Shown: piece after piece, positions 9,879-35,404 of the stretch
How positions within the stretch are numbered: the stretch's first letter is position 1
Layout: the number at the start of each line of letters is the position of its first letter
From: a virus
Lineage: Duplodnaviria > Heunggongvirae > Uroviricota > Caudoviricetes
Virus record (IMG/VR): IMGVR_UViG_2563366819_000003
Location: 1-55,732 of that record
Reading direction: 5' to 3' (one strand)
DNA length: 55,732 bases
The notes under the pieces: model-generated
Databases searched by the model: none
Told to the model about the DNA's origin: nothing
Seen by the model: the letters and a program-made list of their open reading frames with translations, nothing else
Made by a program: the position numbers and the translations under genes

Positions 9879-12800
9879 ATGACCACTGTGAATAAAAAGT
9901 TAAAAAAAACTGCATCTGGCGCGATTACATGGTCAGTAATTGTTACCCAGATATTATCTCCAGTTTCTCTTTCTTTGATTCCGGCAAACAGTTTTGCATC
10001 GTCTGATAATAAAGATGTTACGCAAATTTATGCTAGCGATGAGCGTGCAAATAAAGTGGCCTCATTTGCAGTAAGTGCAGGTCAGAGTCTGGCGAATAAT
10101 AATGCAAGTAGTTTTGCTGTAAATACTTTATCAACTCAGGCGACAAAAGAGGTCGTCGATTGGTTGCAACAATATGGCAATGCGCGCATCAAGCTTAATG
10201 TCGATGATTCTTTTTCCTTGAAGGATTCATCATTCGACTTTTTATATCCATGGCTGGATACTCAGGATTATGTGCTATTCAGTCAAACATCACTACATCG
10301 TACTGATGACCGTAATCAGACCAATATTGGTTTGGGGATTCGTCATTTCACTCCTGATAATGCAATGTTGGGTGCGAATGTTTTCTACGATTATGATTTA
10401 AGTCGCAGCCACTCTCGCGCAGGTTTTGGGGTTGAGTACTGGAGAGATTATTTCAGGCTTGGTGTAAATACCTATTTTGGTTTATCTGACTGGAAGGACA
10501 GTCGGGATATTGATGATTATCTGGAAAGACCCGCAAATGGCTGGGATTTTTCTGCTGAAGGATGGCTACCTGCTTATCCGCAATTAGGGGCATCTATTCA
10601 GTTTGAAAAATATTATGGTAAAAATGTCGGATTATTTGGAAGCGATAATCTGCAGGAAAACCCTTACGCAGTTACTGGGGGAATTTCTTATACACCAGTT
10701 CCTCTGATTAAGTTTTCTGCACAGCATAAGCAAGGACAGAGCAACGTTCACGATACAACCTTTGGTGTTGAGTTTAATTACCGCCCAGGCGTTTCCCTTG
10801 CTGAACAGCTTAGCAGTGACAATGTTGCAGTTATGCGAGAAGTCCAGAACCGGCGTTATGATTTTGTTGAACGAAATAACAACATTGTTCTGGAGTACAA
10901 GAAGAAGCATGCACTGAAAATCAGCTTACCAGAGTCTGTTCAGGGGGATGGCGAATCAATCATCCCTGTAACACTGACAATCAACAATGCCAGTGGTGGT
11001 ATCAAGTCTGTACAGTGGAATGATAGTGTATTCACTGCGGCTGGCGGTAAGATCAGTGGAAATGGCACATCATGGCAGGTCACTTTACCGGCTTATAAAA
11101 GCGAAGGTGTAAATTCGTGGAATGTTGGAGCCACGGTCCAGGATAATAGAGGCAACGTTTCCAACTATGCGGTGATGAATATTAGCGTTATTAATAGTGG
11201 TGTCTCGACAGCGGATTCTTCTTTTATGTTGGATGGAGATTCATCTCCGACGATCTCTGCTGATGGTCAATCCACTCATCCAATAGTATTAAGCCTGAAA
11301 GACAGTAACGGTAAGGCATTAACCGGACTGGCTGATGACATTGAAATGTCAGTGGAATTTACTGCGGATAGCAATAGTGCTCGACAGCGTGAAACGGTAA
11401 CTGCCCCGTCATTAGGCGCGGTAGAGGAAATCTCTGCTGGTGTATATCGCTCTGTTCTGACTGCTGGTTCGCAGGCTGGCACAGTACGTGTAACAGCAAA
11501 AGTTCAGGGAAAAACCTTTACTTTGAATATTAAGCAGGCAGCCGTTATTGATAGTGATGTCTCGACAGCGGATTCTTCTTTTACGTTGGATGGTGATTCG
11601 TCTCCGACGATCTCTGCTGATGGTCAATCCACTCATCCAATAGTATTAAGCCTGAAAGACAGTAACGGTAAGGCATTAACCGGACTGGCTGATGACATTG
11701 AAATGTCAGTGGAATTTACTGCGGATAGCAATAGTGCTCGACAGCGTGAAACGGTAACTGCCCCGTCATTAGGCGCGGTAGAGGAAATCTCTGCTGGTGT
11801 ATATCGCTCTGTTCTGACTGCTGGTTCGCAGGCTGGTACGGTACGTGTAACTGCAAAAGTAATGGATAAAACATTTACTCTCAGTATTAAGCAAACAGCA
11901 GCAACAGAACCTGATTCTGAGGTCAGTGCTGTTTTAACCGCTGCACCAGCAGAACAGGTAGTTGGTTACAATATCAATCTACAACTGGCAGTGAAGGATT
12001 CACAAGGAAATGCAATCACTGGTGATAACACTCTGAGCTTTTATGCTCTTAACCAGGCAGAAGGAGTCGAGTTTGGGGCTGTAACGGAAAAAGACGGTGT
12101 CTATAGCGCGACAGTAACTTCAAAACGAGCTGGTAAGATTCGGATCGGTGTTAAATCGGGTAGTCACAATTTCTCAGGTATTGAGAAAGAAATCTCCTTT
12201 ATTGAAGATCGAACACAGTTCGCATTCTCTCGTATTGAAGCCAGTAAAAATAATGCATTGGCTGACGGCAAACAACAGAATACGGTGACTGTAAGCCTTG
12301 CAGATCGTTTCGGCAATGTTGTGCCCGGTTATGCTGTTACGCTGTCCTTACCTGCGGGGGTAACTCAAGTTGGTGGTGAACATGCTGTGTCAACTGACGA
12401 AAACGGTAATGCTGTTTTTGCGTTAATAAGCTCCACTCCGGGTTCTTACGTGATTAAAGCTCATGCTGGTTCTCAGATGTCTACTGAGTTAACAGTAACC
12501 TTTGCATCAAATATGATCGGAGCTTCACTGTCACTGACGCCTGGAAACAGTAGCTTAATTTCCAATATTCCTGCTAATGGTAAGGATGCTGCGGTATTGA
12601 ATGTGCAACTGACAAATACGAATGCGTCGGTCAATGGACAGAAGATTCAGCTCATCACCTCATCTGAAGGATTGTCTGTACCGACAAATATCGTGACTGA
12701 TTCAACAGGGCATGTTTCCGTACCACTTACAACGGTGAGAGCTGGTGAGTATACGGTGGCTGCACGAGTGACTGACGGTTCCCATAGTGTGGAGTCTGGC

Positions 12801-20806: not shown

Positions 20807-23787
<2,981 letters not shown>

Positions 23788-23864
23788 AACCCTTGCTGCG
23801 TCTGGAATGTCGTTTTCCATGCTTTTGATGACCGTTCATCACCCTTCCAGTTTTTCGCGGTTTT

Positions 23865-23917
23865 GTGTATTGCAATGTGTATTGCAAATTGGCGATCGGG
23901 ATGGGTGTGTATTGCAA
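23865..23917. repeat. Three direct copies of GTGTATTGCAA upstream of satellite integrase (candidate arm-type integrase/regulator binding sites)
   Basis: gtgtattgcaa at about 23865, 23877 and 23907; related copies gtgtattgca / gtgtattgc at 34530..34551 near the other end of the element. Confidence 0.5.
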
Positions 23918-23935
23918 ATCTCTTGAGGGCTTTTA

Positions 23936-25177
23936 ATGGCTATTGAAAACAAACTCAGTGACAAACTGTTAAAGAGTCTTGTCGGAAAACGGCAGGACAA
24001 ACAAAAAACAATAGCGGATGGGCGCGGGTTGTCTGTGCGTGTAAGCATGGTTGGGGGGATCAGCTTTGTTTTTTACTATCGTCTTGGTGGCAGGGAATCC
24101 CCTCCGGTATGGCTTACACTTGGTCGCTATCCTGACATGTCTCTTGCAACGGCCAGGCGCATGCGTGATCAGTGCCGTGAATGGCTGGCTGAAAATCTGG
24201 ACCCCCGCAGGCAAATAAAACTTGCTGCCGAAAAAACTATGCAACCAGTGACCGTAAGGGATGCGCTGTTTTACTGGTACGACAATCACGCCACAACAGC
24301 CAGAAAAGAGCATGAATATTTAATAAAACGATTTGAAAAGCATATCTTCCCCTATATCGGTGATATGGCTATAGAACAGTGCAAATTACACACATGGCTT
24401 ACCGTCTTTGACAGGATCAAAAAAAATGCGCCTGTTATGTCTGGTGCAATTTTTCTTGATATCAAACAGGCGTTGCGTTTTTGTCGCGTCAGGCAATACA
24501 TCGCGTGCGATCCCTTTGGAGATATTAACGTAAGTTATGTCGGGCGCTCATCCGGTATAAGGGATCGCGTTCTTAATATCAATGAAACCGCTGATGTATG
24601 GTCTTATGCTTACGGTAATAATTTGCTAACTCTGTCATCAATATATAACCGAAGAATAATGGTTATCTGCCTGGTGTTTGGTTGCCGACAGCAGGAGGCG
24701 AGGCTATCCACCTGGGACGAATGGGATTTAAAAAACTGGGTATGGACAGTCCCAAAAGAGCACAGCAAAAACAAGGAGGCTATAGTAAGGCCTGTTCCTG
24801 ACGGAATAAAACAATGGATCGTTAATCTTTACGCAGAAACAAAAAATCGCGGTTATGTTGTCGGTTGTGCTTTGCAAAGGGCGACAATAACAGGGGCTGC
24901 AAACAGAATATGCAGGCGTCTTGGTCATGATACTAATGGCTTGTGGTGCATACATGATTTCAGGCGCACATTTTCCACTACGCTTAATGATATGGGGGCG
25001 GATCCTTATATTGTTGAACTTCTTTTAGGTCATAAAGTGAAAGGGGTTGCTGGTGTTTACAATAAAAGCAGGCATATAAAGAAAAAACTTGAGGTGCTTA
25101 ATATGTGGGTTAATTACCTTAATACGATAGCAGGATTTAACAACAACGTTATCGAGCTTAATAAAGAGGTGGTGTGA
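23936..25177 (+). CDS. int: Tyrosine integrase, P4-type
   Basis: 413 aa; C-terminal catalytic region (HDFRRTFSTTLNDMG...LLGHKVKGVAGVYNKS); at one end of the inserted element adjacent to the repeat. Confidence 0.9.
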   Translation: MAIENKLSDKLLKSLVGKRQDKQKTIADGRGLSVRVSMVGGISFVFYYRLGGRESPPVWLTLGRYPDMSLATARRMRDQCREWLAENLDPRRQIKLAAEKTMQPVTVRDALFYWYDNHATTARKEHEYLIKRFEKHIFPYIGDMAIEQCKLHTWLTVFDRIKKNAPVMSGAIFLDIKQALRFCRVRQYIACDPFGDINVSYVGRSSGIRDRVLNINETADVWSYAYGNNLLTLSSIYNRRIMVICLVFGCRQQEARLSTWDEWDLKNWVWTVPKEHSKNKEAIVRPVPDGIKQWIVNLYAETKNRGYVVGCALQRATITGAANRICRRLGHDTNGLWCIHDFRRTFSTTLNDMGADPYIVELLLGHKVKGVAGVYNKSRHIKKKLEVLNMWVNYLNTIAGFNNNVIELNKEVV

Positions 25178-25178
25178 T

Positions 25179-25436
25179 ATGGCAATTTATTCTCTTGTTG
25201 ATGAAAACGATTTGCGCACAATGAAGGACATTGATCGGTTCATTCGTGAAAAAGAGTGCATAGCACTTACCACGCTGGCAAACTCAACACGCTGGAAAAT
25301 GGAGCTAGCAGGTAAATTCCCGCGACGTATCAAGATCGGTGAACGTGCTGCAGGGTATCGACTTTCAGAGGTTCAGGCATGGATCCGTGGTGAGTGGCAT
25401 CCTGGATGGAAACCTGGAAAAACAAAACAGCAATAA
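25179..25436 (+). CDS. alpA: AlpA-family HTH regulator / excisionase-like protein
   Basis: 85 aa; AlpA-like segment LTTLANSTRWKMELAGKFPRRIKIGERAAGYRLSEVQAWI; directly downstream of the integrase. Confidence 0.8.
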   Translation: MAIYSLVDENDLRTMKDIDRFIREKECIALTTLANSTRWKMELAGKFPRRIKIGERAAGYRLSEVQAWIRGEWHPGWKPGKTKQQ

Positions 25437-25492
25437 CCAGTAAATAATGCCCCTCATCACGAGGGGTTTTTTGTCTATAAGGTAAAAACGCG

Positions 25493-26071
25493 ATGAATAA
25501 AAATATTGCCGTGACGGGCAAGGGGTACGCTCGTCCAGTGAAAAAATTCTGCGATATTCGTGATCTCGTCGTTCTGCGCTTTGATAGTGTGAACGTTCGT
25601 GTGGTGTATCTGAACGGCGATCCGTGGTTTGTTGCAAAAGATGTTTGTGCTGCGCTGGAACTAACCAATTCGCGTACGGCGTTGCAGATGCTTGATGATG
25701 ATGAAAAGGGAGTAAATTTAACTTACACCCCAGGAGGAAATCAGAATATGAGAATTATCTCTGAGTCAGGTTTCTACAAACTAATAGCCCGCAGCCGCAA
25801 AGCAACGACGCCTGGCACATTTGCTCATCGTTTCAGTAACTGGGTATTCAGAAATGTGATACCAGGTATCAGAAAAACGGGGACTTATGGTATCCCGTGG
25901 GGTGCATTACAGGATTTTTCCCGCCGTAAAGAGCAATATCAAATAAGTGCCAGCGAGAAGGGGAGGGAGCTACAGGCATGTAAGCGCAAAAAGCGTGAGC
26001 TGGAGGAAGAAGAAAAAACGCTGATACGTGAATATCAGCCTGAGTTTTACTTTGGTAACCGCATTCAGTGA
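25493..26071 (+). CDS. Bro-N domain protein (antirepressor-like)
   Basis: 192 aa; Bro-N-like core (VRVVYLNGDPWFVAKDVCAALEL...ISESGFYKLIARSRK...FSNWVFRNVIPGIRKTGTY). Confidence 0.65.
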   Translation: MNKNIAVTGKGYARPVKKFCDIRDLVVLRFDSVNVRVVYLNGDPWFVAKDVCAALELTNSRTALQMLDDDEKGVNLTYTPGGNQNMRIISESGFYKLIARSRKATTPGTFAHRFSNWVFRNVIPGIRKTGTYGIPWGALQDFSRRKEQYQISASEKGRELQACKRKKRELEEEEKTLIREYQPEFYFGNRIQ

Positions 26072-26404
26072 CAAAACAAAGGCGACCGCAAAAGGGTCGC
26101 CAGTGGGAACAAGGGAAAACAAAAGCATCACCAACAATGCCACATTTGCGGCTGGTGGGCAATGTGATCAGTCAGATTTGGTTCGTTCCAAGGTTTGCAA
26201 CGAGAGCTTTTTCCTGTGCTCTTTAAGGAATTTCTCAAGAGCAAACGAACAAGGTGCGAATCTTTCTGATTCATGTTCATGCGCTATATTTTTGCGTCGT
26301 CTCTTACGAGTTGGTGATGGTGTTTTGGTTGATTCTGTGTCGCTCATGGTGCTGTCCTGTAAAGCAATGCGCCTGCGTTCCTCAAACTATGGCGCTGATA
26401 TTGG

Positions 26405-26710
26405 CTATTCATGCTCTTTGACCTTGCGTCGCTGGAGTTCTTCACGCGCGACGGTGACGAGTTGCCCGATCTCCTCGGCTGCTTTGATGCCGATTTGTTC
26501 GACCTTAGCCAGGGCATCCAGTGACGACACAAGGGGATTTTCTCCGCTGCCTTCTGCTTGGCGGCGGGCTATTTCTCCGCGCATGGCGGTTACGATAAAT
26601 CCGGCATTGCTTTCACCGTCCAGCTTAACGGATTCCATCCCTTGCATAACATCTAGTGGGACTCTGACAGTTGTCAGTTGTGATTTTGCGTTTTTGTTAG
26701 CCGTTGCCAT
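26405..26710 (-). CDS. Hypothetical protein, divergently transcribed from the satellite replication operon (candidate regulator)
   Basis: 101-aa ORF on minus strand facing a promoter-operator-like region; no clear HTH recognised. Confidence 0.4.
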   Translation of the reverse strand: MATANKNAKSQLTTVRVPLDVMQGMESVKLDGESNAGFIVTAMRGEIARRQAEGSGENPLVSSLDALAKVEQIGIKAAEEIGQLVTVAREELQRRKVKEHE

Positions 26711-26770
26711 TTCTGAAACTCCTAATCATCGGTGTGTTTCAGTATACACAAAAAAAGAAATACAAAAAGC

Positions 26771-26809
26771 CTTGACGTGTGTTTCATGCGCTCATAACAT
26801 GAAACACAC
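26771..26809. promoter_or_regulatory. Promoter/operator candidate: TTGACG -35-like hexamer followed by a 12-bp perfect inverted repeat
   Basis: cttgacg tgtgtttcatg cgctcataa catgaaacacac; inverted repeat 26777..26788 / 26798..26809, between divergent genes. Confidence 0.4.
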
Positions 26810-26900
26810 CGAAAGGATTGTTGAAATACAAAGAGCAACGCCCCGCAGTGCTGGGAACACATACGGGGCGTCTAACCAACAACGTAAACTAGGAGCCGTT

Positions 26901-27098
26901 ATGGTTGCTGTAAATCATATACCACACCTTGTACACACACAAACGGCCTTTGTGTGGCGTTTTCTGGCACTGAGTGCCGGAGAATCTCAAATCATCCACG
27001 TAACCGCCTGGACGGAACGCGAAGCGCGTAGCCGTTGCCCGTCCGGTTGTGTTGCTGTATTCGCTGCAAAAATCCGCCAGGGAGTGAGTCATGCTTAA
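26901..27098 (+). CDS. Hypothetical small protein (65 aa), first gene of rightward satellite operon
   Basis: ATG at 26901 preceded by RBS AGGAG (26891..26895); lies at 3' end of a longer, compositionally odd ORF in the track. Confidence 0.35.
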   Translation: MVAVNHIPHLVHTQTAFVWRFLALSAGESQIIHVTAWTEREARSRCPSGCVAVFAAKIRQGVSHA

Positions 27099-27276
27099 AA
27101 CCTTCCGTGTATTTGCCCGAGCTGTTAACCCAATAGGCCACACAATTGGTATCGCTCAGAATGTGAAGGCTGTTAATGTTCAGACGGCTATTGCTGCGGT
27201 GAGAAGCGAATCATCAGAATATGGCTTATCACAAGTCATTATTTCAGCAGTGTATGAATTAAAAGAGGTGCATTAA
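27091..27276 (+). CDS. Hypothetical small protein
   Basis: 61-aa ORF with RBS GGAG upstream, overlapping neighbours by a few nt (translationally coupled operon). Confidence 0.35.
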   Translation: MLKTFRVFARAVNPIGHTIGIAQNVKAVNVQTAIAAVRSESSEYGLSQVIISAVYELKEVH

Positions 27277-27467
27277 TGCAGGAAATTACATTACACGAAG
27301 CCGCTGAACGTGCGCACCAGACAGAAATTATTTGCCGCCTTCTTGAGGTATACCCGAACAAAATTACAGATGCTGATATATCCGCACTGGCGAGCCTACT
27401 GGCGCGTCTTTCGGGAAGTGTCGCTAGTTTTTTGATTGAGGAAGAAAGTAAGCTGGTGGAGGATTAA
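27276..27467 (+). CDS. Hypothetical small protein
   Basis: 63-aa ORF in tightly packed operon. Confidence 0.35.
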   Translation: MQEITLHEAAERAHQTEIICRLLEVYPNKITDADISALASLLARLSGSVASFLIEEESKLVED

Positions 27468-27689
27468 ATGAATACAGAACGGGAAGTCTTTTTTAAATTG
27501 TTAGCATGTGCAGAAAGTTCATTAACTTTAAATAATTCAGCAAAAGCAATATTAAATATGTGGCTTGATTGCATAAATGACAATGAAGATGCAAATATTG
27601 CTTATGGTCTGTTGTCACTTATTGATGAATCAGCAGAAAAACTCAATGACGCAATAAATAGTGCCCTGCTATCAAATAAGTCGAGTTAA
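27468..27689 (+). CDS. Hypothetical small protein
   Basis: 73-aa ORF in tightly packed operon. Confidence 0.35.
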   Translation: MNTEREVFFKLLACAESSLTLNNSAKAILNMWLDCINDNEDANIAYGLLSLIDESAEKLNDAINSALLSNKSS

Positions 27690-27706
27690 GTCGAGGAATA
27701 AATAAT

Positions 27707-28006
27707 ATGGAAATGAAAAATTCTGGCTTTATTGCCAGCGGCCCAGCTCGACCTGAATTTATGAACGGCGATATTTACCGCGATAAATACGGCGGCACGG
27801 TAACGATTAAAGGCGTGGCAGAACGGCGCATCACTTACCGCCGTGAGGGGTATAGCTATGACTGCGTGATGCCTGTTTATCAGTTCCGGCGTGATTTTTC
27901 CCTGGTATATGCCGCACCCCGCAGTAAGCCCATCAGCAGGGAAAAAGCGTGGGGAAATATCCAGAAAATGAAAACCATGATTAACGGATTCAGAGGTAAA
28001 AAATGA
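27707..28006 (+). CDS. Hypothetical protein
   Basis: 99-aa ORF, stop overlaps primase start (ATGA). Confidence 0.4.
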   Translation: MEMKNSGFIASGPARPEFMNGDIYRDKYGGTVTIKGVAERRITYRREGYSYDCVMPVYQFRRDFSLVYAAPRSKPISREKAWGNIQKMKTMINGFRGKK

Positions 28007-29757
28007 AACTGGCACCGAACGTAAAACAGCAGTCACGCGGCATAAAACACAAAGGAACAGAAGTCATTATTTTTGCGGGTAGTGATGCCTGGGCACACGC
28101 GAAACAATGGCAGGAACATGATGCGCGTATGGCCGGAGATAATGAGCCTCCTGTGTGGCTTGGGGAGCAGCAGCTATCCGAACTGGATAATCTGCAAATT
28201 GTGCCGGAAGGCCGAAAATCAGCACGCATATACAGGGCCGGATATCTTGCGCCTGTAATGATAAAGGCGATTGGTCAGAAGCTGGCGGCAGCAGGCGTAC
28301 AGGATGCAAATTTTTATCCTGAGGGTATGCACGGCCAGGAGGTGCAGAACTGGCGCGAATATCTGGCCCGTGAACGCCAGAATCTTTCTGATGGTCTGGT
28401 CATTGAGCTTCCGGTAAAGCAAAAGGCGCAACTTTCGCAGATGGCGGACAGTGAGCGCGCGCAGTTGCTTGCCGATCGCTTTGATGGCGTTTGCGTACAT
28501 CCTGAAAGTGAAATCGTTCACGTATGGCGCGGCGGGGTATGGTGTCCGGTCAGCACAATGGAACTTAGCCGCGAAATGGTGGCGATCTATTCAGAGCACA
28601 GGGCCACTTTCAGCAAGCGCGTAATCAATAACGCCGTGGAAGCGTTAAAAGTTATTGCCGAACCAATGGGCGAGCCGTCTGGCGATTTGCTGCCGTTCGC
28701 CAATGGTGCGCTTGACCTGAAAACGGGGGAATTTTCCCCGCACACGCCGGAGAACTGGATCACCACGCACAACGGCATTGAGTACACGCCACCAGCACCA
28801 GGGGAGAACATCCGCGATAACGCGCCAAACTTTCATAAATGGCTTGAGCACGCAGCCGGAAAAGACCCGCGCAAGATGATGCGTATATGTGCCGCGCTGT
28901 ACATGATTATGGCGAACCGGTACGACTGGCAGATGTTTATTGAGGCCACCGGAGATGGCGGGAGCGGTAAAAGTACATTCACACACATAGCCAGCCTTCT
29001 GGCAGGGAAACAGAACACGGTAAGCGCTGAAATGACATCGCTTGATGATGCTGGTGGACGTGCGCAGGTTGTCGGGAGTCGTCTTATCGTCCTGGCTGAC
29101 CAGCCGAAATATACAGGCGAAGGAACGGGCATCAAGAAAATCACAGGCGGCGACCCCGTGGAAATTAACCCGAAATATGAAAAGCGTTTCACGGCGGTAA
29201 TCAGGGCGGTGGTGCTGGCGACCAACAACAACCCGATGATATTCACCGAACGGGCCGGAGGTGTGGCACGTCGTCGCGTGATTTTCCGTTTCGACAATAT
29301 CGTCAGTGAGGCCGAAAAAGACAGGGAGCTACCGGAAAAGATTGCGGCTGAAATCCCCGTTATTATCCGCCGATTGCTGGCGAACTTTACCGACCCTGAG
29401 AAGGCACGGGCTTTACTACTGGAACAGCGTGACGGTGATGAAGCACTGGCAATAAAGCAACAGACGGATCCGGTTATTGAGTTTTGCCAGTTCCTGAATT
29501 TTCTGGAGGAAGCGCGCGGCCTGATGATGGGTGGCGGTGGTGATTCAGTGAAGTACACGACCAGGAACAGCCTTTACCGCGTCTATCTGGCGTTTATGGC
29601 ATACGCGGGCAGGAGCAAACCGCTAAACGTGGCTGAGTTCAGCAAGGCCATGAAGCCAGCGGCGAAAGTTTACGGGCATGAATATATTACGCGAAAAGTT
29701 AAGGGAGTAACGCAGACCAACGCAATTACAACAGACGATTGCGACGCGTTTTTATAA
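28003..29757 (+). CDS. Primase-helicase (P4 alpha-like; primase domain plus P-loop NTPase)
   Basis: 584 aa; Walker A GDGGSGKST; overall architecture of phage/plasmid primase P4-family proteins; followed by iteron-like repeats. Confidence 0.85.
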   Translation: MKLAPNVKQQSRGIKHKGTEVIIFAGSDAWAHAKQWQEHDARMAGDNEPPVWLGEQQLSELDNLQIVPEGRKSARIYRAGYLAPVMIKAIGQKLAAAGVQDANFYPEGMHGQEVQNWREYLARERQNLSDGLVIELPVKQKAQLSQMADSERAQLLADRFDGVCVHPESEIVHVWRGGVWCPVSTMELSREMVAIYSEHRATFSKRVINNAVEALKVIAEPMGEPSGDLLPFANGALDLKTGEFSPHTPENWITTHNGIEYTPPAPGENIRDNAPNFHKWLEHAAGKDPRKMMRICAALYMIMANRYDWQMFIEATGDGGSGKSTFTHIASLLAGKQNTVSAEMTSLDDAGGRAQVVGSRLIVLADQPKYTGEGTGIKKITGGDPVEINPKYEKRFTAVIRAVVLATNNNPMIFTERAGGVARRRVIFRFDNIVSEAEKDRELPEKIAAEIPVIIRRLLANFTDPEKARALLLEQRDGDEALAIKQQTDPVIEFCQFLNFLEEARGLMMGGGGDSVKYTTRNSLYRVYLAFMAYAGRSKPLNVAEFSKAMKPAAKVYGHEYITRKVKGVTQTNAITTDDCDAFL

Positions 29758-29759
29758 TT

Positions 29760-30010
29760 TTTTGTAAAAGCCATCTACCCCATCTACCTGAACAAAATAA
29801 ACGCATATTATTCAACATGATAAGTGGGTATAGGGCTAGGTAGAAGGCTAATAAAAGCTCTCTACCTCTTCTACCTGATTTTATCAGTTTCAGGTAGCAG
29901 GGTAGACGGCAGGTAGAGGAGTCAAAAAGCTATCTACCCGCTGAAAGCCGCGCCATTACTGACATGATGAGCATTCGGGTAGATGGGTAGAGGGGGGGAG
30001 GCACAACTAA
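29760..30010. repeat. Iteron-like repeats (GGTAGA / TCTACC family) downstream of primase: candidate satellite replication origin
   Basis: Multiple direct and inverted copies: catctaccccatctacctg, ctaggtagaaggc, ctctacctcttctacctg, caggtagcagggtagacggcaggtagagga, gctatctacccgc, gggtagatgggtagag. Confidence 0.5.
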
Positions 30011-30103
30011 AAACTTTTTAAACGAGGGGGGTGAAAATAAATGCGCATACATAAAAATCACTTAACAAACATGCCAGCCGAAGACATGAATCAGGGGTGA
30101 CAA

Positions 30104-30355
30104 ATGACCAAAATTCGCAGAGACAGAACACAGGCAAAATATAAAGCGTTAGACATGACAGAGCTTTCCTTAAAGGTGGCAATCAAAGCGATAGACCACC
30201 ACACACGGGCAGGATACGCGAAGGAACATCCCGATCTGATAAGCGCATTCATGACCACAGCAGCGGCAAACTTTGCCACGCTGACAGAACGGGAGATTGC
30301 CGAAGCGGAACAGGTGACAACCATCAATGTTAAAACCGGAGAGCAGACAGCATGA
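30104..30355 (+). CDS. Hypothetical protein
   Basis: 83-aa ORF upstream of and overlapping the SSB gene start. Confidence 0.35.
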   Translation: MTKIRRDRTQAKYKALDMTELSLKVAIKAIDHHTRAGYAKEHPDLISAFMTTAAANFATLTEREIAEAEQVTTINVKTGEQTA

Positions 30356-30774
30356 CAGCACAGATAGCGGCTTACGGGCGGCTGGTGGCTGACCCGCAGT
30401 TAAAGACCACCAGCAAAGGGACACAAATGGCGATGGCGAGTATGGCGGTTCCCCTGCCGTGCAGCCAGGCAGATGACGGAACGGCGACGATGTGGTTATC
30501 CGTCCTGGCGTTTGGCAGACAGGCCGACGCACTGGCAAAACACCACAAAGGCGAACTGGTGAGCGTGGCGGGTAACATGCAGGTAAGCCAGTGGACAGGC
30601 CAGAACGGCGAAACGCGGCGGGGCTGGCAGGTTATCGCAGACAGCGTAATCAGTGCGCGAACGGCGCGACCGGGCGGCAAAAAAGGCCAGCAGGGGCAGG
30701 CCACTGACGCACTGAACAGGGCAAAACAACAGTCGGGGAATGATGATCCGTACGGCGATAATATACCGTTTTAA
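30352..30774 (+). CDS. ssb: Single-stranded DNA-binding protein (SSB-like)
   Basis: 140 aa; OB-fold-like body, Gly/Gln-rich linker and acidic C-terminal tip ...NDDPYGDNIPF resembling the SSB DDDIPF tail. Confidence 0.7.
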   Translation: MTAQIAAYGRLVADPQLKTTSKGTQMAMASMAVPLPCSQADDGTATMWLSVLAFGRQADALAKHHKGELVSVAGNMQVSQWTGQNGETRRGWQVIADSVISARTARPGGKKGQQGQATDALNRAKQQSGNDDPYGDNIPF

Positions 30775-30985
30775 ATTCTGCAAACAAAAAGATGCCGGAA
30801 AAAAATATATTTTCCGGCATGCTACATAAATCCCGACCAAAGGAAGTAAATACATTAACACGAATTATCAGCACTGAAGTTGTTACGGCATATTTTATAC
30901 AACATTGCACTTGGTTGCATGTATTCGCATAGCAGACATCGGTAATAGAATATATTCACAATTATTTGTAATGAATGTAAAGAGG

Positions 30986-32032
30986 ATGAGTATGGTTGAT
31001 TTATATTCGCCTACACAGCTTGTGCAGGTGGCTAATGCTGAAGATGTGCAAAAAAAATTAAATGCGTTGTTTACCAGTTTGTTTTTCACTCGCTCGGTAA
31101 TGTTTGAATCGAGAGACATTATTCTTGATACGATCGACGATCCAAATATCCCGATCGCGGCGTTTTGCTCTCCTATGGTGGGCAGTAAAGTTTCACGAGA
31201 TGAGGGATACGAATCAAAAACAATTCGTCCAGGTTATATGAAGCCGAAAAGCAGCATTGATCCAAATAAGTTAGCTGTGCGCCCTGCTGGTGTGTCACCT
31301 GAGCAATACAATGCTTTTGGGGCGCGTAATATTAAAGTTAAACAGGCGATTGTAAATCAGGCTAAAGCTATTCGTGCACGTATTGAATGGCTTGCTGTTC
31401 AGGCAATCACAACGGGGAAAAATATCATTGAGGGCGATGGTATTGAACGTTATGAGCTGGACTGGAATATAAAACCACAAAATATCATCACTCAGTCTGG
31501 CGGTACTGAGTGGTCAGGTAAGGATAAAGAAACTTTTGATCCAAATGATGATATTGAGAGCTACGCAGAATTTAGTGAGGGCGTCACTAATATCATCATT
31601 ATGGGTGGTAATGTATGGAAGAAATACCGTTCATTCAGAGCGATAAAAGAGGCTTTGGATACCCGTCGTGGTTCTAATTCCGAACTGGAAACGGCCCTTA
31701 AAGACCTTGGTGATTCGGTGAGTTTTAAAGGGTATATGGGCGATGTTGCGATTGTTGTTTACAGCGGGCGTTATACCGACGAGGACGGAACAGAAAAACA
31801 TTTCCTTGATCCTGATTTGATGGTGCTTGGCAATACGGCTCTTCAGGGGATTGTCGCCTATGGCGGTATTCAGGATCCGGAGCTAATCCGAATGGGGCTG
31901 ACTAAAGCCGAACTTGCACCGAAAAACTATATTGTGCCTGGTGATCCGGCTATTGAATATGTGCAGACACATTCAGCACCACAGCCAATACCGGCCCGCA
32001 TCAATCGTTTTGTTACCGTTCGCATTGGCTAA
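30986..32032 (+). CDS. Major capsid protein, divergent homologue of lambda E
   Basis: Starts MSMVDLY (lambda E MSMYTTA); shares blocks ITQSGGTEWS, DTRRGSNSELETA.KDLG, GDVAIVVYSG with the helper E at 37102..38127 (roughly half identical by eye). Start could also be 30992. Confidence 0.85.
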   Translation: MSMVDLYSPTQLVQVANAEDVQKKLNALFTSLFFTRSVMFESRDIILDTIDDPNIPIAAFCSPMVGSKVSRDEGYESKTIRPGYMKPKSSIDPNKLAVRPAGVSPEQYNAFGARNIKVKQAIVNQAKAIRARIEWLAVQAITTGKNIIEGDGIERYELDWNIKPQNIITQSGGTEWSGKDKETFDPNDDIESYAEFSEGVTNIIIMGGNVWKKYRSFRAIKEALDTRRGSNSELETALKDLGDSVSFKGYMGDVAIVVYSGRYTDEDGTEKHFLDPDLMVLGNTALQGIVAYGGIQDPELIRMGLTKAELAPKNYIVPGDPAIEYVQTHSAPQPIPARINRFVTVRIG

Positions 32033-32041
32033 GGGGGAGCA

Positions 32042-32383
32042 ATGGCTACTCATTACACTGAACTCATGGCTGGCACTGAAGCACTGGTGACTACGCTGGG
32101 GATATTTTCAGCTAATAAAGGGGTAATTCCTGCATTTACGCCACTGATGCAGGAAGATGCAACAGGTGCACTGGTGATATGGGATGGTTCGAGCGTAGGT
32201 AAAGCGGTTTATGTTTCCGCTGTACAAATCGACACAGCGAAAAAAACACAGGCACAGGTTTATAAGACAGGTGTTTTAAATGTTGATGCTCTGAACTGGC
32301 CTGAGTCTGTAAAAGAACTGTCGGCAAAGGTTGCCGCGTTTGTTGGCTCAGGTATTTCTGTTCAGCCGCTGGCTCGTGTGTAA
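32042..32383 (+). CDS. Head decoration protein, lambda D-like
   Basis: 113 aa, directly downstream of the E-like gene (same order as D-E reversed in lambda); similar size and pattern to gpD (FTPLM..., ...AV...GTAISV-like C-terminus). Confidence 0.65.
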   Translation: MATHYTELMAGTEALVTTLGIFSANKGVIPAFTPLMQEDATGALVIWDGSSVGKAVYVSAVQIDTAKKTQAQVYKTGVLNVDALNWPESVKELSAKVAAFVGSGISVQPLARV

Positions 32384-32394
32384 AGGGGGATACA

Positions 32395-32778
32395 ATGCAG
32401 AATCATTACAATGACCTTAAGCCAATTGCCGAAATGATGTATCCGGATCCAGCAGTAGAGGAATTAAAGGCTATTGCTGACAAAATGCGTTTAAGTGAAC
32501 GCCTTGTTGATATGAATCAGGTGATGGAACTTACTACCCTTAGCCGTCGCACATTGCTAAACCTTGAGGCTCGCGGAGAGTTCCCCGAACGCGTACAGGT
32601 TACGGAAGGGCGTAAGGCCTGGTATTTAAGTGAAGTGATCGACTGGATAAACAATATTCCTCGATCTTCTGAATATTGCCGCGTACCTGTCCCAAAAAAG
32701 CCAGATGCGGCGCTATGCCTCAAGATTGAGCGTGTACGTCGCAATGCACGGGATGGTCGCTATAAGTTGATTGGTTGA
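32395..32778 (+). CDS. AlpA-like HTH protein (second copy in element)
   Basis: 127 aa; segment LTTLSRRTLLNLEARGEFPERVQVTEGRKAWYLSEVIDWI has the AlpA-family pattern. Confidence 0.55.
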   Translation: MQNHYNDLKPIAEMMYPDPAVEELKAIADKMRLSERLVDMNQVMELTTLSRRTLLNLEARGEFPERVQVTEGRKAWYLSEVIDWINNIPRSSEYCRVPVPKKPDAALCLKIERVRRNARDGRYKLIG

Positions 32779-32799
32779 TGAAATTAGGGCCTGTTCTGG

Positions 32800-32875
32800 C
32801 TGGCGGGTCCTTTCCGGCGATCCGGTAGGCTACGGGGCGGCGACCTCGCGGGTTTTCGCTATTTATGAGCCTTTT
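32800..32875 (+). other. cos: Satellite cos site: cosQ/cosN identical to helper (cosN gggcggcgacct at 32835..32846), downstream cosB-side sequence divergent
   Basis: gggtcctttccggcgatccggtaggctacggggcggcgacctcgcgggttttcgctatttatga matches helper 20042..20106 except for a short patch; sequence after atttatga differs completely from helper. Confidence 0.85.
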
Positions 32876-32994
32876 TCGGGTGCTGGTGGTGGTTTTGTTG
32901 TTCGCTCTATCTCTATGAATAAAAAGGAAAAGATAAAGCCAATACACCAACCTGAAACATTACTTAAGTGGGGATATTGATGAAATCGCACCTG

Positions 32995-33522
32995 ATGAAC
33001 AAAAAAAACATGGCGCAAAGCTGCCGTGTAAGTGCGACAGCGTTCGACAAGTGGGGAGTGACTCCCGTTGAACGTAAAGGCCGCGAGGCGTTTTATGATG
33101 TTGCCAGCGTAATAGACAATCGGGTTAGCAATGCAATTAACCAGATTACAGACGACAAAGGCGAGATTGATGATGATGAACTCCTACGAGTCAGGATCAG
33201 ATTGCTGACAGCACAGGCAGAGGCGCAGGAGCTTAAAAACGAGCGCGAACGCGGCGACGTTATTGATACAGCGTTTTGTATATACGTGCTTTCAAAATTG
33301 GCGAGTCAGATTTCTTCAATCATGGACAGCCTGCCGCTTGCCATGACAAGGAAGTTTCCCGACATGAAGCCGTCTATGCTGGATGGACTGAAAAAAGAAG
33401 TTATCAGAGCCTGTAACGCATGCGCAAAACTTGACGAAAACATACCGCTGATGCTGTCCGATTATCTGATGGAAACTGCCGGAAACGTACCGGATAAGTT
33501 GCAGCCGAATAAAGATAAGTAA
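32995..33522 (+). CDS. Terminase small subunit, Nu1-like with divergent N-terminal DNA-binding domain
   Basis: C-terminal two-thirds resembles Nu1 (ELKNERERGDVIDTAFCIYVLSKLASQISSIMDSLPLAMTRKFP... vs helper ELKNARDSAEVVETTFCTFVLSRIAGEIASILDGIPLSVQRRFP...); N-terminal about 50 aa differ. Start chosen at MNKKNMAQ. Confidence 0.8.
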   Translation: MNKKNMAQSCRVSATAFDKWGVTPVERKGREAFYDVASVIDNRVSNAINQITDDKGEIDDDELLRVRIRLLTAQAEAQELKNERERGDVIDTAFCIYVLSKLASQISSIMDSLPLAMTRKFPDMKPSMLDGLKKEVIRACNACAKLDENIPLMLSDYLMETAGNVPDKLQPNKDK

Positions 33523-33533
33523 CGTAGTACGCT

Positions 33534-33815
33534 ATGACTGAATCCGAAATACTGCGATTAATCCGCCGTGCTTGTGGAATCAGCAAGCAGCATGACGAAC
33601 AGGCCACGCAGCCGGACAGCGTGACCGCAGATAATTATGTGCGTGTAGTGGCTGAGGTGATGCGCCGTGACGGTATTGAGCTTAACGGCGTGGATATGCG
33701 CAACATACGAACAAGAGTCCTTGAGTTGCTGGCATATCGTCGCCGTTCTCAACAACGGAGGGAGAGCGCGAAAAATACTTACCAGTGGAAGAAGCCGGAA
33801 CGATTGCGGCGGTAA
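33534..33815 (+). CDS. Hypothetical basic protein
   Basis: 93-aa ORF immediately after TerS; Arg-rich C-terminus. Confidence 0.35.
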   Translation: MTESEILRLIRRACGISKQHDEQATQPDSVTADNYVRVVAEVMRRDGIELNGVDMRNIRTRVLELLAYRRRSQQRRESAKNTYQWKKPERLRR

Positions 33816-33824
33816 CTTGCTGAT

Positions 33825-34222
33825 ATTCCCGATAACGCAAAATTGCGCTGGCTGACTTGTTGCATTGCAAAAAGTTAAGCAGGAAGGCACGGCCTGTAAG
33901 ATGGGATGCAGTAAGTAGTTCAAGGCTACCTTGTGCTGGCACGCACAGTTAAGCCGTCGGTGCTGGATATCCCCCACTGGGGGAAAAGCTGGCTACATCC
34001 CTCACATCTGAGGACTGATAACGCGACATTGCGCTGGCTGGCAAAGTGCAAAATTGCACGATGGCCTAACCCATTGATTATTTCGAAAACCTGCAATGCA
34101 GGAAATCGGGGAAGTAAGCCTAAGCTATTGATTGTTTCGAAAACCCCCATTGGGGGATGTCGGGAAAGTAAGACTAACCCATTGATTCTTCCACAATCCT
34201 CAATTTGAGGAGGCCGGAACGT
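33825..34222. repeat. Array of short hairpin-forming palindromes with differing stems in an ORF-poor region
   Basis: cgcaaaattgcg (about 33834), cccccactggggg (33971..33983), cctcacatctgagg (34009..34022), gtgcaaaattgcac (about 34055), cctgcaatgcagg (34100..34112), cccccattggggg (34154..34166), cctcaatttgagg (34207..34219); three share a flanking motif attgatt..ttcgaaaac. Confidence 0.45.
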
Positions 34223-34630
34223 CTACATAGCTGCATCGCCGTAATGATGATTCAGCCCACCAGCCAAATCAGCACAGCAACGACAGAATAGCCCGACACA
34301 GAAAAACCACGAATATGGGGTTTTTGTTATGACATGGTCATGATGACCACTCATACAAAACAGGTAAAGCCCACCAGCCTGATTAAAGGTTAACCGGAAA
34401 AAAGCCAGGTATCCAATCTCGATATGGGGATCCCTATATCGACATTAACGCTCACTAAAACTGTGCATATATGCATAGAAAAAGCATCCACCAGCTTTAT
34501 GACGGATGCCGCTCATCTTATAAATAATCGTGTATTGCAGTGTGTATTGCGACTCCTTTAAACGATAGGTCTGAGCATTCGTAATGTACTGTTTTTAAAT
34601 TTTATTTTTTCCTGTCTTTTCATAAAGGCG

Positions 34631-35404
34631 ATGTATGCCGCCACCATTGAGAGTGAGCTGGATACGCAGTCAGCGATGGATTTTATTCTGGGCGCGAACA
34701 GTCAGGAGCAGCGGGAAAGGCTGACCGGCTGGATTGGTGAAATTGCCGCGTATTACGCCGCAGCGCCGGTCCGGCTGGGAGGCGCAAAAGTACCGCACCT
34801 GATGCCGGGTGACTCACTGAACCTGCAGACGGCTCAGGATACGGATAACGGCTACTCCGTGTTTGAGCAGTCACTGCTGCGGTATATCGCTGCCGGGCTG
34901 GGTGTCTCGTATGAGCAGCTTTCCCGGAATTACGCCCAGATGAGCTACTCCACGGCACGGGCCAGTGCGAACGAGTCGTGGGCGTACTTTATGGGGCGGC
35001 GAAAATTCGTCGCATCCCGTCAGGCGAGCCAGATGTTTCTGTGCTGGCTGGAAGAGGCCATCGTTCGCCGCGTGGTGACGTTACCTTCAAAAGCGCGCTT
35101 CAGTTTTCAGGAAGCCCGCAGTGCCTGGGGGAACTGCGACTGGATAGGCTCCGGTCGTATGGCCATCGATGGTCTGAAAGAAGTTCAGGAAGCGGTGATG
35201 CTGATAGAAGCCGGACTGAGTACCTACGAGAAAGAGTGCGCAAAACGCGGTGACGACTATCAGGAAATTTTTGCCCAGCAGGTCCGTGAAACGATGGAGC
35301 GCCGCGCGGCTGGTCTTAAACCGCCCGCCTGGGCGGCTGCGGCATTTGAATCCGGGCTGCGACAATCAACAGAGGAGGAGAAGAGTGACAGCAGAGCTGC
35401 GTAA
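34631..35404 (+). pseudogene. B: Portal protein B, C-terminal fragment (257 aa), in frame with N-terminal fragment if the insert is removed
   Basis: MYAATIESELDTQSAMDFILGANSQEQ... continues lambda B exactly where the 22906..23735 fragment stops. Confidence 0.9.

Follow-up and report, generated by a model that had tools for sequence, protein, structure and literature searches.

A phage-inducible chromosomal island of the EcCICFT073 family in a lambdoid prophage and its probable replication module

Among the questions raised by phage satellites that lodge inside the genome of another phage, an obvious one is how they copy their own DNA. It arises in a stretch of 55,732 nucleotides (the window, positions 1 to 55,732 of the IMG/VR virus record IMGVR_UViG_2563366819_000003, Caudoviricetes), which carries an element at 23741..34624 with a gene for a 584-aa P-loop protein followed by a field of short repeats. 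Based on the letters alone, the original prediction described the interval 28003..30010 as a P4-alpha-like primase-helicase with its iteron origin, that is, as the autonomous replication module of an element that probably replicates independently after excision. Our analysis indicates that this region is very probably the replication module of a phage-inducible chromosomal island (PICI) of the EcCICFT073 family, composed of a superfamily 3 (SF3) helicase-initiator of the D5/P4-alpha type and an iteron-containing origin (ori). The replicon reading is held with high confidence because the module is nearly identical to one that has been validated experimentally.

EcCICFT073, an island between roxA and phoQ in E. 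coli CFT073, serves as the model for PICIs of Gram-negative bacteria (Fillol-Salom et al. 2018, PMC6092414). The protein encoded by the window gene, hereafter Rep, is identical to EcCICFT073 Pri-Rep at 571 of 584 positions (98%), both having the same length and differing by 13 amino acids; the EcCICFT073 counterpart is annotated as a “DNA primase family protein”. The likeness includes TCTACC iterons at the same positions, an AT-rich stretch, a DUF4222 gene upstream, and a small open reading frame (ORF) and a gene for a single-stranded DNA-binding protein (SSB) downstream, followed by capsid and decoration genes. In EcCICFT073, a fragment containing rep and ori kept the temperature-sensitive plasmid pKO3-blue at 44 C, the deletion of either rep or ori abolished this maintenance, and the deletion of pri-rep cut the transfer of the island about 100-fold (PMC6092414). 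The same study located the PICI origin directly 3′ of the replication gene, in the form of iteron sets flanking an AT-rich region, and described four allelic Pri-Rep variants among E. coli PICIs (PMC6092414). The cloning experiment proposed with the original prediction has thus already been carried out on a near-identical allele: autonomous replication was demonstrated for the rep-ori of CFT073, with its 98%-identical protein, and by homology it can be expected of the window allele. Together with the clustering of the iterons, this identity strongly supports the earlier claim that the element has its own replication module, an initiator gene with the iteron origin behind it. Over 2.7 kb (27700..30400), the window is also 99.9% identical to the E. 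coli strain APEC O2-211. Searching the phage collection by megablast with this region gave no match, and the distant relatives present there were detected by tblastn only.

The satellite's predicted replication initiator, an SF3 helicase, is the product of the rep gene (“pri-rep”; 28003..29757, + strand). The start codon of this gene, an ATG preceded by the Shine-Dalgarno sequence AGAGG, shares bases with the stop of the DUF4222 gene before it (ATGA). Among the NCBIfam models Rep matches TIGR01613, “phage/plasmid primase, P4 family”, which models the region C-terminal to the primase; a match to phrog_864 was also obtained. Three domains follow one another along the protein: D5_N (aa 153-282, 28459..28848; Pfam PF08706, E 1e-15), an SF3 P-loop NTPase core (aa 316-417, 28948..29253; Pfam DUF5906) and a C-terminal winged helix, the predicted origin-binding domain (aa 487-575, 29461..29727; Pfam Pox_D5). 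The helicase core contains the Walker A motif GDGGSGKS (aa 317-324, 28951..28974), a Walker B-like VLADQ (29089..29103) and the motif C LATNNN (29215..29232), and is followed by an RRRV motif (aa 423-426, 29269..29280). The key residues of these motifs (G317, GGSGKS 319-324, D366, L405/A406, N408/N409 and RRRV 423-426) are invariant in an alignment of Rep with its relatives (alignment A1). Comparison with solved structures matched residues 190-432 to the SaPI5 PriRep helicase (7OLA, E 4e-15) and residues 488-576 to the origin-binding winged helix of P4 alpha (PDB 1KA8, E 8e-6), and in a direct alignment residues 141-573 of Rep are 40% identical to residues 324-756 of P4 alpha (E 8e-112). Of the features of the P4 alpha type, the sequence of Rep has D5_N, the SF3 P-loop helicase and the predicted C-terminal winged helix. 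The 584-aa P-loop protein announced by the original prediction is thus borne out by its ORF, its Walker A motif and its Pfam domains, and “P4-alpha-like” is a fitting description for the C-terminal two thirds of alpha (helicase and origin binding), although not for its primase part.

Directly downstream of rep lies the predicted ori (29771..29994), with 12 copies of a unit of about 9 bp (for example CCATCTACC) whose core is TCTACC, frequently arranged in tandem pairs 8-11 bp apart. Forward copies start at 29774, 29783, 29861, 29870 and 29933, and reverse copies (GGTAGA) at 29827, 29839, 29893, 29901, 29912, 29978 and 29986, those at 29827 and 29893 having one mismatch. Out of 15 exact TCTACC/GGTAGA hexamers in the window, 10 (five per strand) fall in the 218 bp at 29774..29991, where shuffled sequences predict 0.056 copies (Poisson P ~8e-20 for the clustering). 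The iterons extend from 17 bp to 234 bp past the rep stop codon, so the many repeats in both orientations “within 250 bp” of the gene had been accurately described, and 28003..30010 encloses both the gene and the field. Between the first pair of iterons and the next ones there is a 37-bp AT-rich stretch with 24% GC (29789..29825), the predicted DNA-unwinding site; an AT-rich 30-mer (80-90% AT) occurs at the matching place in all relatives and in the ori of P4. The right half of the field (29890..29994) mirrors the left unit, with three inverted, one direct and two inverted copies around a 45-bp spacer (CTGAAAGCCGCGCCATTACTG...), which is not AT-rich and is conserved among the TCTACC-type loci. 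Across the window, CFT073, GN05064 and MDR_56, four E. coli elements that share this helicase core, the TCTACC positions have been kept while the spacers have diverged. A search of 29700..30110 for DnaA boxes (TTATNCACA, allowing one mismatch) gave none. Relative to CFT073, GN05064 and MDR_56, the window field shows some local peculiarities: its central direct cluster has two iterons instead of three (29826..29878, compared with 12066..12116 of locus L009), it contains an extra degenerate inverted copy, GGGTATAGGG, and the distance to the next ORF is longer by about 60 bp (30041..30103).

The layout of this field can be compared with that of phage P4 by writing the start-to-start distances between copies, with > and < for exact forward and reverse iterons and { for reverse copies with one mismatch. 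The P4 ori (reverse complement) then reads > 10> 41< 24> 11> 10>, CFT073 reads > 9> 46< 22> 11> 9> ... 21< 11< 22> 46< 9<, and the window reads > 9> 44{ 12< 22> 9> 23{ 8< 11< 21> 45< 8<. On these maps, the PICI field appears as a P4-ori-like unit with its AT-rich stretch, followed by a mirror image that lacks the AT-rich spacer. The left half has the order of the P4 ori (two direct copies, AT-rich stretch, one inverted copy and a direct cluster), although that last cluster comprises three iterons in P4 and CFT073 and two in the window. The position of the field directly 3′ of the initiator gene is in turn that of the P4 crr, which lies 3′ of alpha. Other features separate both replicons: P4 uses the iteron TGTTCACC instead of TCTACC, and has separate ori and crr sites 4.5 kb apart instead of one compact field of two mirror-image units, so that neither the iteron nor the two separate cis sites of the P4 replicon are found in the window element, whose gene content is moreover of the PICI and not of the P4 type. 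A similar comparison holds for the SaPIs (Qiao et al. 2022, PMC9371898). Their self-loading SF3 Rep reads short iterons through its C-terminal winged helix, and their 6-12 iterons lie right after rep and flank an AT-rich centre, at least two per side, in opposite orientations. The window locus appears to share this Rep/ori layout, and its SF3 ATPase core is homologous to that of SaPI5 (the 7OLA match), whereas the similarity is distant and confined to this core, the host clade of SaPIs is Gram-positive, and SaPIs have a primase, either as a separate protein or as a fused domain, that is not recognisable in the window.

These likenesses suggest how the module could work. Rep would act as a self-loading SF3 helicase-initiator, whose C-terminal winged helix would recognise the ~9-bp TCTACC iterons 3′ of its own gene, as proposed from its homology to the P4 alpha domain and to SaPI Rep. 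The two inverted sets of iterons would serve as the platform on which hexamers of Rep form; these would melt the DNA at the neighbouring 24%-GC stretch (29789..29825), the presumed melting site, and then unwind it, while the SSB of the element would coat the strands and the host polymerase would copy them. Primers would come from the host DnaG, possibly recruited through the N-terminal domain of Rep, of about 135 aa. Priming by the host DnaG primase is the most likely solution, since no recognisable primase domain was found in Rep or in any other gene of the element.

The N-terminal domain (aa 1-135, 28003..28407) is indeed the part of Rep that departs from P4 alpha. The first 323 aa of alpha include a Zn_Ribbon_Prim domain (residues 30-66) and a Toprim_3 domain (residues 210-299), neither of which has a counterpart in Rep according to Pfam and NCBIfam; the first ~150 aa of Rep match no family in either database, and the ~135-aa domain that they contain shows no recognisable sequence relation to the alpha region. 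None of 28 homologues of this domain matches Toprim or another primase-catalytic family, even at E<=10, and a single one gives a chance-level match (E 0.1) to the non-catalytic helical domain RepB_primase_C. A comparison of the domain profile with residues 1-330 of P4 alpha by hhalign revealed no homology (probability 5.8%). The label “primase” thus fails by the very test attached to the original prediction, namely the presence of primase motifs on alignment, which leaves the replicon claim unaffected.

The predicted fold of this domain, weakly Toprim-like, leaves some room for a distant kinship. A confident AlphaFold model (pLDDT 86), built on the alignment of 28 sequences, has a beta-alpha-beta-alpha-beta-alpha-beta-alpha fold, that is, four beta-alpha units. 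A Foldseek search of the model found no significant match in the PDB and only weak ones in BFVD, with Toprim primases among them. When the sequence is read against the predicted strands, A25-G26 stand at the end of beta1, where Toprim has its catalytic Glu, and R-A-G-Y-L at the end of beta3, where Toprim has DxD; no acidic residue is conserved in the family at either of these positions. A Toprim ancestry is therefore possible from the model, but there is no support for a functional Toprim active site. The string IIFAGSDAW was first read as a degenerate EGYATA Toprim motif, a hypothesis that no sequence method confirmed. For these reasons, we find it unlikely that Rep truly combines primase and helicase activities as P4 alpha does, in which case the N-terminal domain would be a compact, non-canonical primase derived from Toprim and the replicon would be independent of the host DnaG.

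The distribution of the domain is that of a mobile module. Near-identical E. coli sequences were all that a large protein search gave, and the diversity of the domain came from a library of cluster representatives queried with the N-terminal 153 aa: it is present in just 78 of 1.84 billion representatives, nearly always at the protein N-terminus. Its full-length carriers have four different cores: D5_N/DUF5906/Pox_D5, DUF927, AAA_25 (RepA-like) and VapE-like. At the nucleotide level, the first ~420 nt of rep recur in E. coli genomes with 72-89% identity, fused to DUF927 or RepA-family genes, as in the loci L011 (3001..5133) and L012 (3001..4416). In MDR_56 the N-terminal domain is 42% identical to that of the window and the core 95-99% identical, and in 2013C_3964 the N-terminal domain is 72% identical and the core 34-56% identical. 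Such values indicate that the N-terminal domain recombines independently of the helicase core, each with its own history. A DUF4222 gene stands directly upstream of every initiator variant that we examined (CFT073, Xuzhou21, E02 and other loci), and since it precedes all those carrying the N-terminal domain, both products may function together.

Each initiator type is accompanied by its own repeats. In 2013C_3964 and in vB_KppS-Ant (loci L006 and L002), with Reps that are 42-50% identical to that of the window, the iteron layout is the same, but the iteron is TGTTCACC, an exact match to the annotated type I iteron of P4. C-terminal domains share 81-100% identity when both belong to the TCTACC group, 43-79% when both belong to the TTCACC group (P4 among them) and 28-34% across the two groups. 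The clade of the C-terminal domain thus appears to track the iteron type, as would be expected if this domain recognises the iterons; a single switch between two clades is consistent with such recognition but falls short of proof. Where a DUF927 initiator occupies this gene slot, the satellite has a downstream field with iterons of its own, TGCGGGTTA (~12 copies, L011 5150..5475), and where the initiator is of the RepA/AAA_25 type, the iterons are AAGTGGGGA (~8 copies, L012 4417..4610). Consequently, the initiator core and the origin appear to be swapped together as a cassette between constant flanks, with DUF4222 upstream and the small ORF and SSB downstream.

These observations lead us to a tentative proposal, which we find plausible but short of probable. 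The “Pri” half of the enterobacterial PICI Pri-Rep would not be a primase, but a family-specific module of ~135 aa, possibly a Toprim relic devoid of Glu and DxD, that has been exchanged among at least four unrelated initiator/NTPase cores, each with its own iterons. It could serve as a constant adaptor, for instance by recruiting the host DnaG or by docking the DUF4222 protein or SSB, in a plug-in replicon where the helicase and origin cassette is swappable.

Regarding the iteron field, the alternative that survives best takes its cue from P4, where the iteron cluster directly downstream of alpha is crr and ori lies 4.5 kb away. The window field could likewise be a crr-like cis enhancer or a copy-control site acting by handcuffing, with the true origin elsewhere, and the right half, which has no AT-rich spacer, would fit such a role. 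However, no second TCTACC cluster exists in the element (23741..34624), the remaining five hexamers of the window being isolated and outside it. The spacing of the left half is that of the P4 ori and not that of crr, with the AT-rich stretch in its place, and in CFT073 the rep-ori fragment was by itself enough to maintain a plasmid (PMC6092414). An origin located elsewhere is in our opinion highly unlikely. The PICI field (29771..29994, as compared with 9300..9420 of P4) could be a fused ori plus crr, and a field that combined both roles may refine the reading as a replication module, but would not replace it.

We give almost as little credit to the idea that the repeats are mainly operators, through which Rep or another regulator (AlpA or the Bro-N protein) would control ssb and the late genes. 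The field does sit inside a unidirectional operon, with rep before it and further genes after it, and autoregulation is frequent among initiators that bind iterons. Yet neither a sigma-70-like promoter nor a terminator was found on the + strand of 29650..30200, nor does any Rfam family match in the element, and the field is arranged like the origins of P4, SaPIs and PICIs. The fact that every initiator type brings its own iterons points to binding by the initiator itself, and a regulatory side-effect of the iterons would be compatible with their function as an origin. Finally, an artefact of chance or low complexity, conceivable for a unit that is only a hexamer and whose 15 copies in the whole window equal the shuffling expectation of 14.3, deserves practically no weight in view of the clustering of 10 of them in 218 bp and of the conservation of their positions in four independent E. 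coli elements with diverged spacers.

What does the locus add to our knowledge of these satellites? The replication module itself is already known, and the finding matters little in this respect because the gene, the origin layout and the cloning experiment have been published for a 98%-identical allele; its value for annotation is that the replication zone of a PICI embedded in its helper is now fixed in the window. Any interest beyond annotation resides in the N-terminal domain, a small and uncharacterised piece common to four initiator types, in proteins that are called primases and yet miss the primase domain of P4 alpha. If this domain is an adaptor and not an enzyme, the primer source of these satellites becomes an easily testable question.

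The genes around the module place it in a typical satellite. The element, an island of ~10 kb, is a unidirectional array with int (23936..25177), alpA (25179..25436), a Bro-N gene (25493..26071) and rep, all on the + strand, and also encodes an Icd-like gene. The DUF4222 gene (27707..28006, +; 99 aa, Pfam DUF4222 E 9e-24) is translationally coupled to rep by the ATGA overlap. Between ori and ssb there is a small ORF in a conserved position (30104..30355, +; 83 aa, phrog_1231), and ssb itself (30352..30774, +; Pfam SSB E 5e-16, TIGR00621) forms part of the replication zone. Late genes follow, with a major capsid gene of the E family (30905..32032) and the small terminase gene terS (32968..33522). 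The core set of PICIs consists of an integrase, an AlpA-type regulator, a primase-replicase, a capsid-type gene and a small terminase, without tail or lysis genes (SatelliteFinder; de Sousa et al. 2023), and all five components are present in the element as int, alpA, rep, the capsid-type gene and terS.

The element lies within a lambdoid prophage, whose lambda-B-like portal gene it splits at 23740 / 34625, and is flanked by the att core AAGGCGAT(T/G)TATG at 23728..23740 and 34625..34637. In strain S1-ISR-02-A (L010) an uninterrupted portal gene joins both halves exactly, so that excision, if precise, would make the gene whole again. Of 5426 complete E. coli genomes, 62 have this left junction. 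Near the ends of the element there is a doubled TGTATTGC motif (23866..23885 and 34531..34550), reported as specific to the attP arms of helper-embedded PICIs (HE-PICIs) (Tommasini, Mageeney & Williams 2023, PMC10111431); a third, single copy lies upstream of int (23908..23915). The portal-gene insertion, in a late gene of the prophage and in its orientation, the doubled motif and the order of four zones (integration, Bro, replication and late) all coincide with that description and no difference was found, so the element is an HE-PICI; the portal-gene insertion, considered at one point as new, had already been described as the HE-PICI configuration (PMC10111431). With respect to EcCICFT073, the integrase and the integration site differ (the prophage portal gene in the window, the roxA-phoQ interval in CFT073), and the window element also encodes a terS.

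This embedding also qualifies the expectation that the element replicates independently after excision. In HE-PICIs the composite of prophage and satellite has been seen replicating before the satellite excises (PMC10111431), and for a prophage-embedded element a scheme in which excision comes first is only part of the picture.

Some observations concern the capsid genes of these satellites. The late region of the window element (30905..32383 and 32395..33522) comprises lambda-E-type major capsid and decoration genes, a second AlpA-like helix-turn-helix gene and the small terminase subunit. The satellite capsid and decoration genes exist beside those of the surrounding prophage, and EcCICFT073 has the same pair. 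The class of capsid-forming PICIs was considered for the element and rejected, given that it lacks its own portal, protease and terL genes and that EcCICFT073 carries this pair too. The 16.5-kb vB_KppS-Ant (LR881103.1) was deposited as a phage, under the name “Escherichia phage vB_KppS-Ant”, but resembles a capsid-forming PICI: its annotation shows neither tail fibre nor lysis genes, and it has int, a 42%-identical Rep, a P4-type TGTTCACC iteron field, and capsid, portal and terminase genes.

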